This document shows, in pieces, positions 112 through 8,043 of a stretch of DNA of 64,000 bases; within the stretch, counting starts at the first letter, position 1, and each line of letters opens with the position of its first letter. A program made the translations under genes and the position numbers. Location: contig JAQIBS010000020.1 of NCBI GenBank assembly GCA_027858965.1, positions 23,569 through 87,568 of the forward strand. The letters run 5' to 3'. This stretch comes from Kiritimatiellia bacterium. GTDB taxonomy: Bacteria > Verrucomicrobiota > Kiritimatiellia > RFP12 > UBA1067. A model generated the notes under the pieces. It searched no databases. It was not told the DNA's origin and saw only the letters and a program-made list of their open reading frames with translations.

Positions 112-645
112 ATGAAAAGAGATATCACATATAACCGCAGAGGCGTAACCCTGCTTGAGATTAGCTTTGTTACCGCAATCGCCGCCGTTTTAATGGCAAT
201 GATTCTCGGTCTGGCTCATCACATGACCGCTGTGTCCAATATTCGCCGAGCTCAGAGCGACTTGGGTGCATGGCACCTGGCCATGGACAACTGGTACGAA
301 ATCTTCGGTGCTTATCCTGGAGAGGTAACTGAGGAAGGAGTTATGACAGAGTTTCTGCTGAGTCATGACGATGAATACTTGGAACTATCGAAGGTTTACT
401 ACGAATGTCGCACAGAATTTTATATCAATGGATATAGAACAAATCAACTCTTTACCAGTTGTTGTACACTGCCCACAAGCATCTACGACCCATGGGGGGA
501 ACCCTATAGATACTTCAGAGATGATAACAAGCAAGCATACAAGTTATTCTCCTGTGGTCCAGACACTGAGAGCGGAAACGTAAATTTTAAGGGTCAAGAC
601 AACCCAGACAGCACAACGCTTGACGATATATTTTTTGAAAATTAA
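112..645 (+). CDS. GspG-like (major-type) pseudopilin, prepilin-type N-terminal cleavage/methylation domain
   Basis: N-terminus RRGVTLLEISFVTAIAAVLMAMILGL (prepilin signature with E at +5); C-terminal DPWGEPYRY...FSCGPD matches the GspG/PulG DPWGNPYVY...SxGxDG motif; GAGG RBS upstream. Confidence 0.7.
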   Translation: MKRDITYNRRGVTLLEISFVTAIAAVLMAMILGLAHHMTAVSNIRRAQSDLGAWHLAMDNWYEIFGAYPGEVTEEGVMTEFLLSHDDEYLELSKVYYECRTEFYINGYRTNQLFTSCCTLPTSIYDPWGEPYRYFRDDNKQAYKLFSCGPDTESGNVNFKGQDNPDSTTLDDIFFEN

Positions 646-670
646 CTCTGAGATTGGCACCGCATATATC

Positions 671-4281: not shown

Positions 4282-7200
4282 ATGTACACACCACTCCATA
4301 GATTTGAAAGTTCCAAACCCGATTCTCGTTCGGGTGTAGCGCTGTTGCTCACCCTAGGAATCCTCTCTGTTATTACGATTTTGGCGATGACGTTCCTACT
4401 ATCAGCCAAGCTGCAAAAGAAAAATTCTGCATCAAATCATGACCGACTAGCAGCCAAAAGCACGCTCAATACCGCACTTGCCCTTGCAATGCAACAAATC
4501 GAGAACTCTCTAACCTATCCAAACTATGTAGATCCTAGCAAAGAGATGCCGTATGAGGGTGATACGCCCCCTATCTACCAGCGCCTTTCCCCCATTAATC
4601 ACTGGATAGACCCTGAGCGACTGGAGAAATTAGGATTGAGCACTGACATTCCATTTCAGTATAAACACATCTTAACCTCCCGTACAATTATAAATCTTCA
4701 AAATAATGTACCGAACATCAATTTATTAACAGATGCAGCTCTAAAACTAATCCCCCCGGCTCTGACAAACAATCTTCCGACGGGCCGCGACGCACTACGT
4801 AGCGCTTGGATTTTATCGGGCAACGTCGACCCTGATGATAACCTTCGCCAAAGACTACAGAACAAGCCTACGCGGGTAGCCTATGCGGTGGTTAATTGCT
4901 CCAGCACTATTGATGCAAACGTATTGCATAGCAACTCAACTGACAAGAAACAACAACGGACATACTTCTCCCAGCAAGATCTCACAGACACATTGAAAAA
5001 TAAAACAACAGAATTGTACCAATATTTGGTGAAGTCTAATAAGCTGGACACAACGGAATCCCCTCTATTTCACACATCCTACGACCCCAATCCGAACACC
5101 TTCCGCTACCTAATTGGCAATGATATCGTAGGCACTGAATCTTTTTCTTCCCCCGCCCCGTTAAACCTTAATGAATTGCGCATACCCGCTCCCGATGATT
5201 TTGCTGCCATCGGTTTACTAATCGATAAACTTTATTCTGGCAATAAAAAGGGGGTATACAATAAATTCGATATCAACAGTATTACTAACTATCTCCCTTC
5301 ATACAACCCCAAAATTACAGAGACAAGTTATAACCGCTGGTATAATGACAACAATTTCATTGAAAGCTGGTTTAACCTCACAAAAATAATACCAAATATT
5401 TGTAAGGCAAAAAGCTCTTCAAACGAGACATATAAATTTGAAGATGGAGACAAACTCGCCTGGTCTATCGCAAATTTCATCGATGGAAACCGAATACCCG
5501 AGGTATCTATTATTGATCTAGCTAACAACGATCTTCCAACCCGTGACACCTACGCCATCGAAGATGTGCCATTGATCAATAAAATAACTGTATTCAATGT
5601 TGAAGATGGTGCAGGCAATACAGGTTACGCTGGGCCCGCTGACAAACTGAGTAATTACGATTACTACAACATCACAGATCAATATCCGCCCCTAAGCAAC
5701 CACTATGCGGTAGCTGTGGAGCTATGGTATCCCTTTGCTCCAAACTCACCATATGGCGATAATAATGATGTCCATCCATTACTGCCCGCCTGTTACGTAG
5801 GTATTCACACAAATGAATCTGATGTTATCACAACCACGAACCGTCCACTAAGTAATCGCGAACTTCAACGCTTTTTTGATGGTATCTTCGCCAGCACATC
5901 AAACACCGTCATGGAAATACTCTTCAACAGATGGGCCTGGGAGTATGAACAGGAGGTAGGTCCCGGCTACCTGATCAACCATCCTCTCTGGCAGGAAATC
6001 ACTGATCAGGGTGACCTCTGGTTTACTCCCGCCATGACCAACCACCCATCATGGCCTGTCGCCGATACCAATGGCAACTTCGATATAGAGAACACCCCCA
6101 TCTATGAGGCCTTCTACCCCCACACCTACGATGAAATAACAACAAACATCACTGGTATCGTCTCAACCAACACCTACACATACGAAACATACACCAACTA
6201 CTGGCTGAGTATGCAATCAACAACAGGTGAAACAAATGAATTTATTTATGGTCAATATGTGTTCGAACATGACTATATGGTCATGTTCTGGTTCAACCCT
6301 GAATCCGGACAGACAACCAGTAACCTAATGAGCGACATTGTCAACGAGGATGGTATCGCGGTGCCATTGGACTATGAATCTAACAGAGCCACCTATCTTC
6401 TTTTTGGTGACACCCCTGAAGACAATTACATTATTTATGAAAACGTGGAATCGGGTGAGTTAGGCACCAACTTCATCGCAGGCATGGTTCTCTCACCAGA
6501 CACTAACACTCAAAATTTCGTCACCTACACTAACTTCTTTAACGAATCCAGTTTGGAACGGATTGAGCCACTCGACATGCCGGATGAATTTGAATCATCG
6601 CTCAACGCTCTCTTCGGCTTACTGCCAACAAACGACATCACCGCTTTTTATGACTATATGCTGCTCACACCGGATGACTATATTCAGGAAAATTGGGATG
6701 ATATCTTTAGTTACTTCCAATCTAATCCATCTCTGCAAACAACAGCACTCCCCCGCATGGAAGAGCCATCACTAGGAAACCTTGATGCAAATAGCAGCAG
6801 GTACTACCTTAAAAACTATGATGATGATGATGATGATGATGATGATGATGATGATGATAACAGCCGCAACTATGTTGAAGAACACATATCAACAGACAAC
6901 ATCTATGGCTATTTCTGGACTGTTTACCCCACCCAAACAGTCTCGTTTCTTCAAATAGATAGAAAAGAGGATGACTTAGGCAAGATTACATACACTACGA
7001 ACTACCTGGCCATTGGAGGTGAAAATAAAATCTGGATTCGACCTGCCGTTACAATTCAAGGTCCCGATACAATGGCGACGCAAGATGGGTCTGGCAATAT
7101 TGAAAGAAACATTATCGATAAGATAGTTGATGAAGCTCTACTCCACGACAAAAAAGATAATGAAGCACCAACAGTAAAAGCCTGGACAGATGAGGGAAAT

Positions 7201-8043
7201 TTCTATGTAGTTGAACCACGTAACAATGCCTATGAGGACAGATGGATACCATCTACATATGACTGGGACACACTAAACTACTCAACAACACTCAGTACAG
7301 GGGTAAAAGAATTACCATTTATTCACTTCAATACCCTGCTGCACTCCATCGGAGATCTCGGACATATCTATAGCAATTATAAAGAACTCACCCAAAATGA
7401 AGACGGAGTACGCCTCCAACTTGGCGGTGATGGATCTTCCTCAAACCCTGGAGGCGGATACAGCGACAATAATACAGAAAATGCGCCTTATAACACCCTT
7501 AACTTCGATACAAAATCAGGTGCATCTCTGCTGGACTTTTTTACTATAACAGAGAATAAACCTATGCGGGGGCTCATTCAAGCTAACACCACCCTCGAAC
7601 CAACACTGGACATTCTTTTCAGCGATATAATGGTCGGCTGGACAAACAACTGGTCAAGCAAGGCAGATAATGAAACAACATGGAAGAAGCTAGATGCAGA
7701 CAATCCCAATTGGGTTGACCTCTGGAGAAAAGCACTGACCAATGACCAGCACAACACAGGCTGGCGCTGTTTTGCGGATATGCTACCTGATCTTTCAACC
7801 AATAATGTCATTCCCATAGACAAACACAACTACACGGAAGATGTGCTACGCGGGATCATCGACAAAGTCTCATTCCGTCAGAACATCTACGTTATCATAC
7901 TGGCAGCCCAGACACTTGCACCGGGATCAGATGAATCCAACAACCCCACCGTTCTCGCAGAACAACGCGCGGCTGTCACTGTTATCCGAGATGCCTACTC
8001 CGGCAACTGGACCATCAGCGAATGGAGAAAATTAACGCAGTAA
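4282..8043 (+). CDS. giant GspK-like pseudopilin (1253 aa) with poly-Asp tract
   Basis: N-terminus SRSGVALLLTLGILSVITILAMTFLL matches the GspK/PulK-type leader (no E5, G-V-A-L-L); last gene of the pseudopilin operon, as gspK is in T2SS loci; about 1100 aa of extra sequence rich in N/T/Y/D; D13 run. Confidence 0.6.
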   Translation: MYTPLHRFESSKPDSRSGVALLLTLGILSVITILAMTFLLSAKLQKKNSASNHDRLAAKSTLNTALALAMQQIENSLTYPNYVDPSKEMPYEGDTPPIYQRLSPINHWIDPERLEKLGLSTDIPFQYKHILTSRTIINLQNNVPNINLLTDAALKLIPPALTNNLPTGRDALRSAWILSGNVDPDDNLRQRLQNKPTRVAYAVVNCSSTIDANVLHSNSTDKKQQRTYFSQQDLTDTLKNKTTELYQYLVKSNKLDTTESPLFHTSYDPNPNTFRYLIGNDIVGTESFSSPAPLNLNELRIPAPDDFAAIGLLIDKLYSGNKKGVYNKFDINSITNYLPSYNPKITETSYNRWYNDNNFIESWFNLTKIIPNICKAKSSSNETYKFEDGDKLAWSIANFIDGNRIPEVSIIDLANNDLPTRDTYAIEDVPLINKITVFNVEDGAGNTGYAGPADKLSNYDYYNITDQYPPLSNHYAVAVELWYPFAPNSPYGDNNDVHPLLPACYVGIHTNESDVITTTNRPLSNRELQRFFDGIFASTSNTVMEILFNRWAWEYEQEVGPGYLINHPLWQEITDQGDLWFTPAMTNHPSWPVADTNGNFDIENTPIYEAFYPHTYDEITTNITGIVSTNTYTYETYTNYWLSMQSTTGETNEFIYGQYVFEHDYMVMFWFNPESGQTTSNLMSDIVNEDGIAVPLDYESNRATYLLFGDTPEDNYIIYENVESGELGTNFIAGMVLSPDTNTQNFVTYTNFFNESSLERIEPLDMPDEFESSLNALFGLLPTNDITAFYDYMLLTPDDYIQENWDDIFSYFQSNPSLQTTALPRMEEPSLGNLDANSSRYYLKNYDDDDDDDDDDDDDNSRNYVEEHISTDNIYGYFWTVYPTQTVSFLQIDRKEDDLGKITYTTNYLAIGGENKIWIRPAVTIQGPDTMATQDGSGNIERNIIDKIVDEALLHDKKDNEAPTVKAWTDEGNFYVVEPRNNAYEDRWIPSTYDWDTLNYSTTLSTGVKELPFIHFNTLLHSIGDLGHIYSNYKELTQNEDGVRLQLGGDGSSSNPGGGYSDNNTENAPYNTLNFDTKSGASLLDFFTITENKPMRGLIQANTTLEPTLDILFSDIMVGWTNNWSSKADNETTWKKLDADNPNWVDLWRKALTNDQHNTGWRCFADMLPDLSTNNVIPIDKHNYTEDVLRGIIDKVSFRQNIYVIILAAQTLAPGSDESNNPTVLAEQRAAVTVIRDAYSGNWTISEWRKLTQ
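6820..6858 (+). repeat. (GAT)13 trinucleotide microsatellite encoding D13 inside the giant pseudopilin
   Basis: 13 perfect GAT codons read directly from the sequence. Confidence 0.95.

Follow-up and report, generated by a model that had tools for sequence, protein, structure and literature searches.

What is a protein of 1253 residues doing at the end of a row of small pseudopilins? The window analyzed here, a stretch of 64,000 nucleotides from a Kiritimatiellia bacterium, carries at positions 112–8043 seven co-directional genes on the forward strand, of which the first six encode prepilin-type proteins and the seventh this much larger product. An initial annotation, made from the nucleotide sequence alone, had read the region as a seven-gene pseudopilin operon closed by a four-fold enlarged, GspK-type tip pseudopilin. 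The open reading frames, their strand and their prepilin motifs bear out the operon; the evidence on the last gene is set out below.

The operon and its neighbors

The arrangement is not a product of chance, since about 38 homologs (30–57% identity) match the 1253-residue reading frame from end to end and the seven-gene order is found again in at least 10 independent loci. Region 112–8043 encodes the filament subunits, one half of a type II secretion-like machine, in a Kiritimatiellia-type bacterium (Table 1). We consider it probable that genes 1–7 constitute the pseudopilin module of a PVC-type type II secretion-like, type IV filament machine, with three G-like subunits followed by proteins in the H, I, J and K positions, gene 7 being the GspK ortholog and apical cap.

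Table 1. Features of the pseudopilin operon in window coordinates; a slash marks the predicted prepilin-peptidase site
Feature	Position	Strand	Basis or remark
Gene 1, GspG-like major pseudopilin, 177 aa	112..645	+	G/VTLLE; DPWGEPYRY
Gene 2, second GspG-like prepilin, 218 aa from ATG 671	671..1327	+	G/FTLME; degenerate NPAGIPF
Gene 3, third GspG-like prepilin, 260 aa	1349..2131	+	G/FTIIE; DPWDNQF
Gene 4, minor pseudopilin, GspH position, 207 aa	2121..2744	+	A/FTLFE
Gene 5, minor pseudopilin, GspI position, 185 aa	2767..3324	+	G/FTLIE
Gene 6, GspJ-like minor pseudopilin, 281 aa	3321..4166	+	G/LTMIE
Gene 7, probable GspK-family cap pseudopilin with extra domains, 1253 aa	4282..8043	+	full-length homologs, profile alignments
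Gene 7 leader peptide, residues 1–18	4282..4335	+	predicted prepilin-peptidase site after Gly18
Gene 7 alpha1, residues 19 to ~80, equivalent to GspK 2–68	4336..4521	+	hhalign; NCBIfam GspK and TIGR02600 matches confined here
Gene 7 extra block I, residues ~81–272	4522..5097	+	no GspK counterpart; found in whole superfamily; global hhalign to P0039
Gene 7 residues 273–425, equivalent to GspK 85–180	5098..5556	+	collinear hhalign, 82%, P 1.1e-5
Gene 7 extra block II, residues 431–1007	5572..7302	+	inserted within GspK alpha-domain-equivalent region
Subfamily-specific insertion in block II, residues 526–904	5857..6993	+	~40-member Kiritimatiellia subfamily
Perfect (GAT)13 repeat, Asp847–Asp859	6820..6858	+	in least conserved gene 7 stretch
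Gene 7 residues 1008–1253, equivalent to GspK 170–327	7303..8040	+	collinear hhalign, 82%, P 1.1e-5

Each of the first six genes encodes Glu at position +5 of the prepilin motif. The Pfam N_methyl model scores above its cut-off for genes 2–4 (E 1.5e-7, 3e-6 and 7.5e-5, respectively), just below it for genes 1 and 5, and weakly for gene 6 (E 0.34). Gene 1 also passes the Pfam T2SSG model (26.1 bits, cut-off 21) and matches the GspG model TIGR01710 (E 1e-9), which genes 2 and 3 match at their N-termini (the first 60 residues, E 8e-8, and positions 1–62, E 3e-8). Both genes recur in relatives, gene 2 at the same position. A GspG-type DPWG.PY motif had been assigned to all three; it is exact in gene 1 (DPWGEPY), altered in gene 3 and degenerate in gene 2. 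Homologs favor the starts at ATG 671 and ATG 2121 for genes 2 and 4, whose reading frames offer alternatives (620/671 and 2079/2121).

When compared with GspG, H, I, J and K, the family profile of gene 6 (A4) aligns best with E. coli GspJ (hhalign 94%, P 1.4e-7, 65 columns). The gene 6 stop and the large-gene start overlap in several relatives. Genes 4 and 5 may correspond to GspH and GspI, assignments made by position. Gene 4 gives weak N-terminal matches to TIGR02596 (Verru_Chthon cassette D, E 4e-6) and GspH, and its homologs keep Ala or Gly at −1. Gene 5 matches TIGR02532 (E 1.6e-4); its family profile matches GspG, GspH and GspI at their N-termini only, and a sequence search with it hit no solved structure.

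No secretin, ATPase or platform gene occurs among the window's open reading frames of at least 350 residues, as the initial annotation had also noted, and its guess that the ATPase and secretin lie upstream agrees with synteny in relatives. There, a secretin, a PilM-like gene and a GspE-type ATPase stand upstream in the same operon, the ATPase directly preceding the gene 1 counterpart and a DUF1559 prepilin adjoining the secretin. Judging from these loci, the three components probably lie just upstream of our window. The window and the flanks examined showed no platform protein (GspF), prepilin peptidase or retraction ATPase, and no GspL, GspM or GspC was recognized in the machine of gene 7. 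In every locus examined the large gene is the last of a cassette of G-like and minor pilins, and two shorter relatives of gene 7 (P0040 and P0042) likewise end such cassettes.

Gene 7 as a probable enlarged GspK relative

The N-terminus of the gene 7 product reads MYTPLHRFESSKPDSRSG before and VALLLTLGILSVITILAMTFLL after the predicted cleavage site (SRSG/VALLLTLGIL), with Leu rather than Glu at +5, in agreement with the earlier reading of a GspK-type leader that lacks this glutamate. Across the family Gly18 is at least 90% conserved and Glu never occurs at +5, and an R[SD]G[VA]AL[IV] N-terminus is common across the wider superfamily. The protein as a whole is rich in Asn (9.6%), Thr (9.0%), Asp (8.5%) and Tyr (5.6%), and its most conserved part is the C-terminus. 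It has no Pfam match at E ≤ 1; with the Pfam models PF21687 and PF03934 neither gene 7 nor any of 61 relatives matched, and the NCBIfam GspK model NF037980 reaches 20.3 bits against a cut-off of 130, over residues 17–76. No GspK model of either collection thus scores above threshold, and where NCBIfam models match, GspK as well as TIGR02600, they do so over the first ~60 residues. The central region matched no known adhesin or enzyme family in our searches, in keeping with the earlier reading, which saw no enzymatic motif there.

The connection to GspK becomes visible through more distant relatives. Gene 7 belongs to a superfamily of 223 unannotated clusters, mostly of 650–900 residues, that share N- and C-terminal modules and a GspK-like N-terminus; the two profiles align end to end (hhalign E 1.9e-97, 709 columns), and those superfamily members that were examined likewise stand last in such cassettes. 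Canonical GspK alpha1 aligns with the first ~70 residues, both for the family of gene 7 (85%) and for the superfamily (95%, E 2.6e-8), upholding the N-terminal part of the initial assignment. Not confined to this helix, the superfamily profile aligns with GspK in three collinear segments (GspK 2–71, 88–178 and 168–321; 95%, 82% and 82%; P 2.6e-8, 1.1e-5 and 1.1e-5), of which alpha1 only is significant when the family of gene 7 is used alone. Within these segments, NKFDINSITN of gene 7 corresponds to CFNLNAL, WSIANFIDGNRIP to DWIDxDxxP, and RGLIQANT to INxNT, followed by terminal beta-strands at residues 1200–1212, 1224–1237 and 1243–1251 (mapped from the P0039 model).

The structural prediction for P0039, a relative ~26% identical to gene 7, is confident (pLDDT 90.3, pTM 0.89), and that for the family of gene 7 itself is poor (pLDDT 51). 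The modeled core of P0039 matches the GspK fold of type II secretion systems, alpha-domain included. Seen in this relative, the superfamily core is thus predicted to have the GspK fold, a pilin sheet with an inserted alpha-domain. Taken together, these comparisons support, indirectly and by way of the superfamily, the view that gene 7 encodes a GspK relative enlarged four-fold by extra domains.

How far does the likeness to GspK go? Compared with the type II secretion caps GspK and XcpX (PDB 3CI0 chain K and 5VTM chain X), gene 7 has the same leader, Gly at −1, no Glu at +5 and a homologous alpha1. It stands last in a G–H–I–J–K row, adjoining the GspJ-like gene, and the motifs FNxN, [DN][WF/Y][IL]DxD, GELxxI and INxNT and the terminal strands are collinear. 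Unlike canonical GspK, which has ~300–350 residues, the protein has 1253, the ~770 extra residues forming two blocks, ~190 after alpha1 and ~580 in the alpha-domain region, and it matches neither Pfam T2SSK nor NCBIfam GspK beyond alpha1. The machine also differs from a type II secretion system in having three G-like genes instead of one and a PilM-like component of the Amuc_1101 type. In P0039 the counterpart of block II is beta-rich, with a weak resemblance to carbohydrate-binding beta-sandwiches (Foldseek E ~6e-3, TM ~0.4). Residues 526–904 have no counterpart in P0039 and are covered by only ~40 sequences, compared with 100–165 for the flanks; there the model is of moderate confidence at best and gives no structural match and no interpretable fold.

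Secretion pseudopilus or another filament?

Instead of a periplasmic piston for secretion, the same genes could build an adhesive type IV pilus outside the cell, with gene 7 as a cap-fused tip adhesin, in effect PilY1 and PilK in one chain. We regard this as possible, though clearly less likely than the secretion pseudopilus. A head of ~90 kDa and three G-like subunits would be odd for a piston, and the ATPase of the relatives scores equally as GspE and as PilB. The PilM/FtsA-like protein adjoining their secretin shows a distant relationship to Amuc_1101, a family from the pili-like Akkermansia cluster (E 4e-17; PMC5332112), at 62 bits against a family cut-off of 650. A precedent also exists in CpaL, a cap protein into which an adhesin domain is inserted (PMC13533445). 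Against a pilus speaks the superfamily core, which matches the type II secretion GspK with its alpha-domain, as do the T2SSG match of gene 1 and the lack of a PilT-type retraction ATPase in the clusters examined. The alpha-domain is, moreover, not known in the small PilX-type proteins of type IVa pili. Secretion is favored further by the type II secretion system reported in a genome paper on cultured Kiritimatiella (PMC5148204).

Might the pilin-like N-terminus of gene 7 serve only as a membrane anchor or export signal for a periplasmic or surface protein outside any filament? Prepilin-type N-termini occur on many PVC proteins, the DUF1559 prepilin beside the secretin of the relatives among them, and some distant relatives of the shared C-terminal module carry beta-helix modules and no detectable pilin-like N-terminus. 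However, the gene invariably comes last in a cassette of G-like and minor pilins, the GspK fold is kept in full and not only in the helix, and conservation peaks in the strands at the extreme C-terminus, as licensing of a tip complex requires (PMC13533445), all of which makes this reading very unlikely. A competence pseudopilus whose large cap binds DNA in the manner of Thermus ComZ is more improbable still, for although a ComEC gene lies in the window (29062–30759), it is 21 kb away on the opposite strand and absent from the relatives' flanks examined (as far as 10 kb for L001, and the downstream side of L002), the surroundings of the operon showed no ComEA, DprA or ComF gene, and ComZ scores far below GspK.

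A model for the cap and its head

On the reading of gene 7 as a GspK ortholog, we propose the following model. Prepilin peptidase would cut the gene 7 product after Gly18, and the mature protein, without Glu at +5, would start the filament as its apical subunit. The strongly conserved strands at its C-terminus would complete the pilin sheet in cis, as those of GspK do. The J-like product of gene 6 and the product of gene 5, in the I position, would recognize it, and the gene 4 product and the G-like subunits would then join beneath, driven by the ATPase. The extra blocks would project from the distal face of the alpha-domain and form a ~90 kDa head on the filament tip. The gene 7 product is hence most likely an apical pseudopilus cap with a large distal head, for which the initial annotation's tip position and adhesive or substrate-binding role appear plausible.

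What might such a head recognize? Our best guess, and the least supported step of the model, is that it may bind polysaccharide or cargo, in an organism with many glycan-degrading enzymes. We speculate, while considering it rather doubtful, that in Kiritimatiellia and related PVC bacteria the GspK cap has been turned into a large substrate-recognition head, in which the alpha-domain inserts would present glycan-binding modules at the tip and residues 526–904, as a domain not described before, would act as the specificity element. If so, the machine would physically link the capture of polysaccharide particles to the export of the enzymes that degrade them, as a combined adhesion and secretion device.

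Relation to known tip proteins

The closest described family in outline is TIGR02600 (Verru_Chthon cassette protein A), which is of similar size, has a GspK-like N-terminus and presumably comes from the PVC group; our literature search returned no paper on it. Its 1296-position model matches the gene 7 N-terminus over its first ~60 positions (E 2e-4, and down to 8e-8 in relatives), and the cassette C and D models, which resemble prepilin N-termini, weakly match those of genes 1–4. That gene 7 is a plain member of this family is nevertheless hardly credible, as its 19.2 bits, against a cut-off of 332.3, come from the N-terminal helix alone (positions 1–59), as do the at most 30.7 bits of all 15 relatives scanned. 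Beyond the first ~60 residues a likeness is undetectable, the comparison being one of model scores only.

PilY1 and PilC of type IVa pili resemble gene 7 in being large (~1000–1200 residues), in their place at the filament tip and in working with I–J–K minor pilins. Unlike gene 7, which combines cap and mass in one polypeptide, they are separate, non-pilin proteins that supply the licensing strand in trans. Gene 7 was rejected as a tip adhesin of this type, having no PilC/PilY1 beta-propeller match in Pfam and a pilin-type N-terminus instead. The resemblance to the Amuc_1098–1102 cluster of Akkermansia muciniphila concerns the machine and not gene 7, no giant GspK-like gene being described for that cluster (PMC5332112); the two small genes after the PilM-like gene of the relatives match neither Amuc_1099 nor any other NCBIfam model.

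PilK homologs lack Glu at +5 and are apical, and GspK provides the licensing strand, at its C-terminus, in cis; large insertions are found in CpaL and ComZ, the middle part of CpaL having been modeled atop the tip (PMC13533445). CpaL/TadG of Caulobacter (~600 residues), ComZ of Thermus (PDB 6QVI) and the PilK homolog of the Vibrio cholerae competence pilus share a design with gene 7 (PMC13533445): they begin with a pilin-like portion, display a large insertion at the tip and complete the pilin sheet in cis with a conserved strand at the extreme C-terminus. The architecture had at first been taken as unfamiliar, and this variant is described in no domain database. PilK-family proteins with large insertions are, however, already known, and since CpaL and ComZ carry such insertions and TIGR02600 is similar in outline, gene 7 is best regarded as a variant on a known design. 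In contrast to CpaL and ComZ, which belong to other filament classes (Tad and competence type IVa pili) and are without the GspK alpha-domain, gene 7 has its largest insertion inside the alpha-domain-equivalent region.

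Homology of the gene 7 product to GspK

Our analysis uncovered a large superfamily of enlarged GspK caps that is new and unannotated; its largest subfamily is represented by the 1253-aa product of gene 7 and distinguished by a private insertion of ~380 residues. GspK is usually a small, uniform cap, and its alpha-domain makes it the last subunit on the pseudopilus. The gene 7 product belongs to the GspK lineage by fold and profile–profile evidence, though every curated sequence model failed. No Pfam family matched it even at E ≤ 1, and the NCBIfam GspK model reached 20 bits against a cut-off of 130, over residues 17–76 only. 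In 15 relatives GspK and TIGR02600 ('Verru_Chthon cassette protein A') likewise matched only the N-terminal helix, past which neither Pfam nor NCBIfam scans found anything in gene 7 or its relatives. TIGR02600 proteins resemble gene 7 in outline, but membership was rejected at 19 bits against 332, again over residues 17–76 only. Kinship with PilY1 was also rejected, as the protein has no PilY1 domain and possesses a pilin N-terminus.

The N-terminus (...SRSG/VALLLTLGILSVITILAMTFLL) carries Leu rather than Glu at +5, and N, T, D and Y are abundant in the protein. An artefactual or fused ORF is ruled out, since about 38 homologues (1180–1440 aa, 30–57% identity) share its full length, with conservation that extends throughout and peaks at the extreme C-terminus. 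Labelled homologues come from Kiritimatiellia-type metagenome-assembled genomes; one genome labelled Armatimonadota holds two separate homologues (loci L013 and L017) and another locus (L023) is labelled Micrococcales, and such non-PVC labels are probably binning errors. The least conserved stretch contains a perfect (GAT)13 microsatellite, whose length could vary in frame between strains.

A search of 1.84 billion representatives with the gene 7 family profile, devoid of the alpha1 helix (E ≤ 1e-3), retrieved 223 clusters at 50% identity. Most of these proteins are 650–900 aa long, start with R[SD]G[VA]AL[IV]xVLG, without Glu+5, as does the window protein, and possess its residues ~1–525 and ~905–1253 but not ~526–904. 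The alignment of the window family with the superfamily runs from one end to the other (709 columns; hhalign probability 100%, E 1.9e-97). Where source names are given, they read 'hypothetical protein', and none of 61 members matched a Pfam family except for one borderline PilX_N hit (E 0.0099). Searched against PDB sequences, the superfamily and window family profiles retrieved no GspK and no meaningful match, nor did the family profiles of genes 5 and 6.

Comparison of the superfamily profile with a canonical GspK profile of 33 sequences yielded three collinear segments, independently of any structural model. The paired motifs (superfamily/GspK) are KFxINSITN/CFNLNAL, AWNIVNYLDxDRIPQ/DWIDxDxxP, NGPMxNIGELGxI/ANxxLxxISELRxVxG and GLVxINT/LxINVNT, and TFRQNIF...RAVAxVxRD corresponds to the GspK terminal strands. 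VVNCSSTIDAN was rejected as counterpart of the GspK FNLN motif, since hhalign pairs KFDINSITN with it instead. Taken alone, the window subfamily is significantly similar to GspK in alpha1 only (85%), which bears out the GspK-type N-terminus proposed in the initial annotation; the assignment of the window protein as GspK is therefore transitive, and in this form it is well supported. An AlphaFold model of P0039, an 812-aa superfamily member, reached pLDDT 90.3 and pTM 0.89 with 81 sequences. The model of P0024, a window-subfamily member of 1182 aa, reached pLDDT 51 and pTM 0.30 with 32 sequences, and Foldseek returned only noise for it (E above 0.1).

Across the superfamily, the caps bear 350 to 1100 extra residues, the largest block lying within the alpha-domain region. 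In the window subfamily this block II has grown by the ~380 residues of 526–904, which the P0024 model moderately predicts as helices and a ten-strand sandwich, for which Foldseek found no structural match. Three distant relatives of 1284–1400 aa (P0132, P0157 and P0177) have the C-terminal module in common with gene 7, contain beta-helix, choice-of-anchor-Q or Amuc_1099-like stretches, and had no detectable pilin-like N-terminus; these architectures suggest that the module may be shuffled between proteins.

Coordinates of genes and other features (nucleotides of the window unless a locus is named), segments of the gene 7 product (residues), and aligned columns of the superfamily (A7) and canonical GspK (A8) profiles
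Feature	Location	Strand	Remarks
Gene 1	112–645	+	G/VTLLE, Glu+5
Gene 2	620/671–1327	+	G/FTLME, Glu+5
Gene 3	1349–2131	+	G/FTIIE, Glu+5
Gene 4	2079/2121–2744	+	A/FTLFE, Glu+5
Gene 5	2767–3324	+	G/FTLIE, Glu+5
Gene 6	3321–4166	+	G/LTMIE, Glu+5
Gene 7	4282–8043	+	1253 aa, Leu at +5
(GAT)13 microsatellite	6820–6858		Asp847–Asp859 of gene 7
Short tandem repeats	8764–8854		intergenic
SASA-type esterase	9831–11402	-	assigned by synteny with locus L002
GH5	18272–19744	-	
GH43	19985–20950	-	
Three tyrosine recombinases	22635–25893	-	adjacent
ComEC	29062–30759	-	
613-aa ORF	36306–38147	+	
rve-type integrase or transposase	39861–41003	+	
Alpha-L-fucosidase	41162–42526	+	
Upstream region with secretin and preceding prepilin, locus L031	6791–9931		
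Upstream region with secretin and preceding prepilin, locus L034	6632–9912		
Gene 7 leader	residues 1–18		
Gene 7 alpha1	residues 19 to ~80		
Gene 7 extra block I	residues ~81–272		present throughout superfamily
Gene 7 equivalent of GspK 85–180	residues 273–425		
Gene 7 extra block II	residues 431–1007		within alpha-domain region
Gene 7 equivalent of GspK 170–327	residues 1008–1253		
Terminal strands of last segment	residues 1200–1212, 1224–1237, 1243–1251		
Profile segment 1	A7 10–79; A8 2–71		95%, P 2.6e-8
Profile segment 2	A7 234–329; A8 88–178		82%, P 1.1e-5
Profile segment 3	A7 526–751; A8 168–321		82%, P 1.1e-5

The pseudopilin operon and its wider cluster

The seven ORFs at 112–8043 all lie on the + strand, and their motifs confirm the row of prepilin-type genes ending in a GspK-like leader without Glu+5 that had been described initially. 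Genes 1–6 are matched by Pfam N_methyl and NCBIfam TIGR02532, gene 6 most weakly. Of the three GspG-type motifs originally reported, one is an exact copy (DPWGEPY in gene 1, which also passes the Pfam T2SSG model), but the other two are degenerate, gene 3 reading DPWDNQF and gene 2 only NPAGIPF; the N-terminal 60 residues of both nevertheless resemble GspG. Compared with GspG, H, I, J and K, the gene 6 family has its best match in E. coli GspJ (94%, P 1.4e-7), and genes 4 and 5 occupy the H and I positions by gene order only. This gives the module the order G, G', G'', H, I, J, K. Two shorter superfamily members, P0040 and P0042, likewise close cassettes of a G-like gene and minor pilins.

The same seven-gene order recurs in at least ten independent loci. 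Upstream of it lie an ATPase gene of GspE/PilB type (TIGR02533, E 4e-161), a pair of small genes (about 250–300 aa) and a ~580-aa PilM-like gene, a distant match to the Amuc_1101 family. In two loci with longer upstream DNA (L031 and L034), a secretin directly precedes the PilM-like gene and is itself preceded by another prepilin, of DUF1559 type in L031. The cluster is thus larger than the part within the window, which, judging from the gene order in relatives, begins just past the ATPase gene. For the ATPase and the secretin, this agrees with the earlier suggestion that the missing components may lie upstream. No secretin, ATPase or platform protein was found among window ORFs of at least 350 aa, and the stretches examined showed neither a GspF-type platform gene nor a prepilin peptidase.

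Possible function of the enlarged cap

How might such a cap work? PilK/GspK proteins lack Glu+5 and form the apical subunit, and in GspK the C-terminal strand licensing recognition by the I–J dimer is supplied in cis (PDB 3CI0, 5VTM; PMC13533445). Several PilK homologues (CpaL, ComZ) carry large insertions, and the middle of CpaL has been modelled atop the tip (PMC13533445). By analogy, we infer that the gene 7 product works like GspK. It would be cut after Gly18 and nucleate the tip together with the gene 6 and gene 5 proteins. Addition of the gene 4 protein and the G-like subunits, driven by the upstream ATPase, would come next, and about 770 extra residues would be displayed on the distal face. 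Gene 7 has its design principle, but not the ancestry of its insert, in common with CpaL and ComZ.

The filament may be a short piston for secretion or else an exposed pilus. A core of T2SS type, including the alpha-domain, and the fact that no PilT was seen speak for the piston, and a T2SS has been reported in cultured Kiritimatiella (PMC5148204). The PilM-like component, which recalls the pili-like cluster of Akkermansia (PMC5332112), and an ATPase that scores equally as GspE and PilB speak for the pilus. Our most plausible guess is that the putative head binds glycan or cargo; glycan-degrading enzymes (GH5, GH43, fucosidase, SASA esterase) are plentiful in the window and its relatives.

What is the relevance of these proteins? 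The superfamily offers a series of naturally occurring cap variants with which contacts of the secretion pseudopilus tip can be probed and, beyond Tad and competence pili, it brings T2SS-type GspK under the recently described PilK-family rule of large insertions displayed at the tip. Gene 7-type caps are also a concrete candidate for substrate contact by poorly studied PVC polysaccharide degraders. Domain databases have a gap here, so genes of this superfamily are missed when secretion systems are annotated. A literature search (Verru_Chthon cassette/TIGR02600, Kiritimatiellota pseudopilins, Verrucomicrobia GspK) found no paper on gene 7-type proteins in the library covered.

Other features of the window

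Downstream of gene 7, short tandem repeats of TCAAACCC and units of 24–26 nt occur in intergenic DNA. Elsewhere, the 613-aa ORF had no match in two Pfam scans, and in the relatives examined the ComEC competence-channel gene shows no linkage to the pseudopilin operon. The tyrosine-recombinase genes and the rve-type gene are probably remnants of mobile elements.
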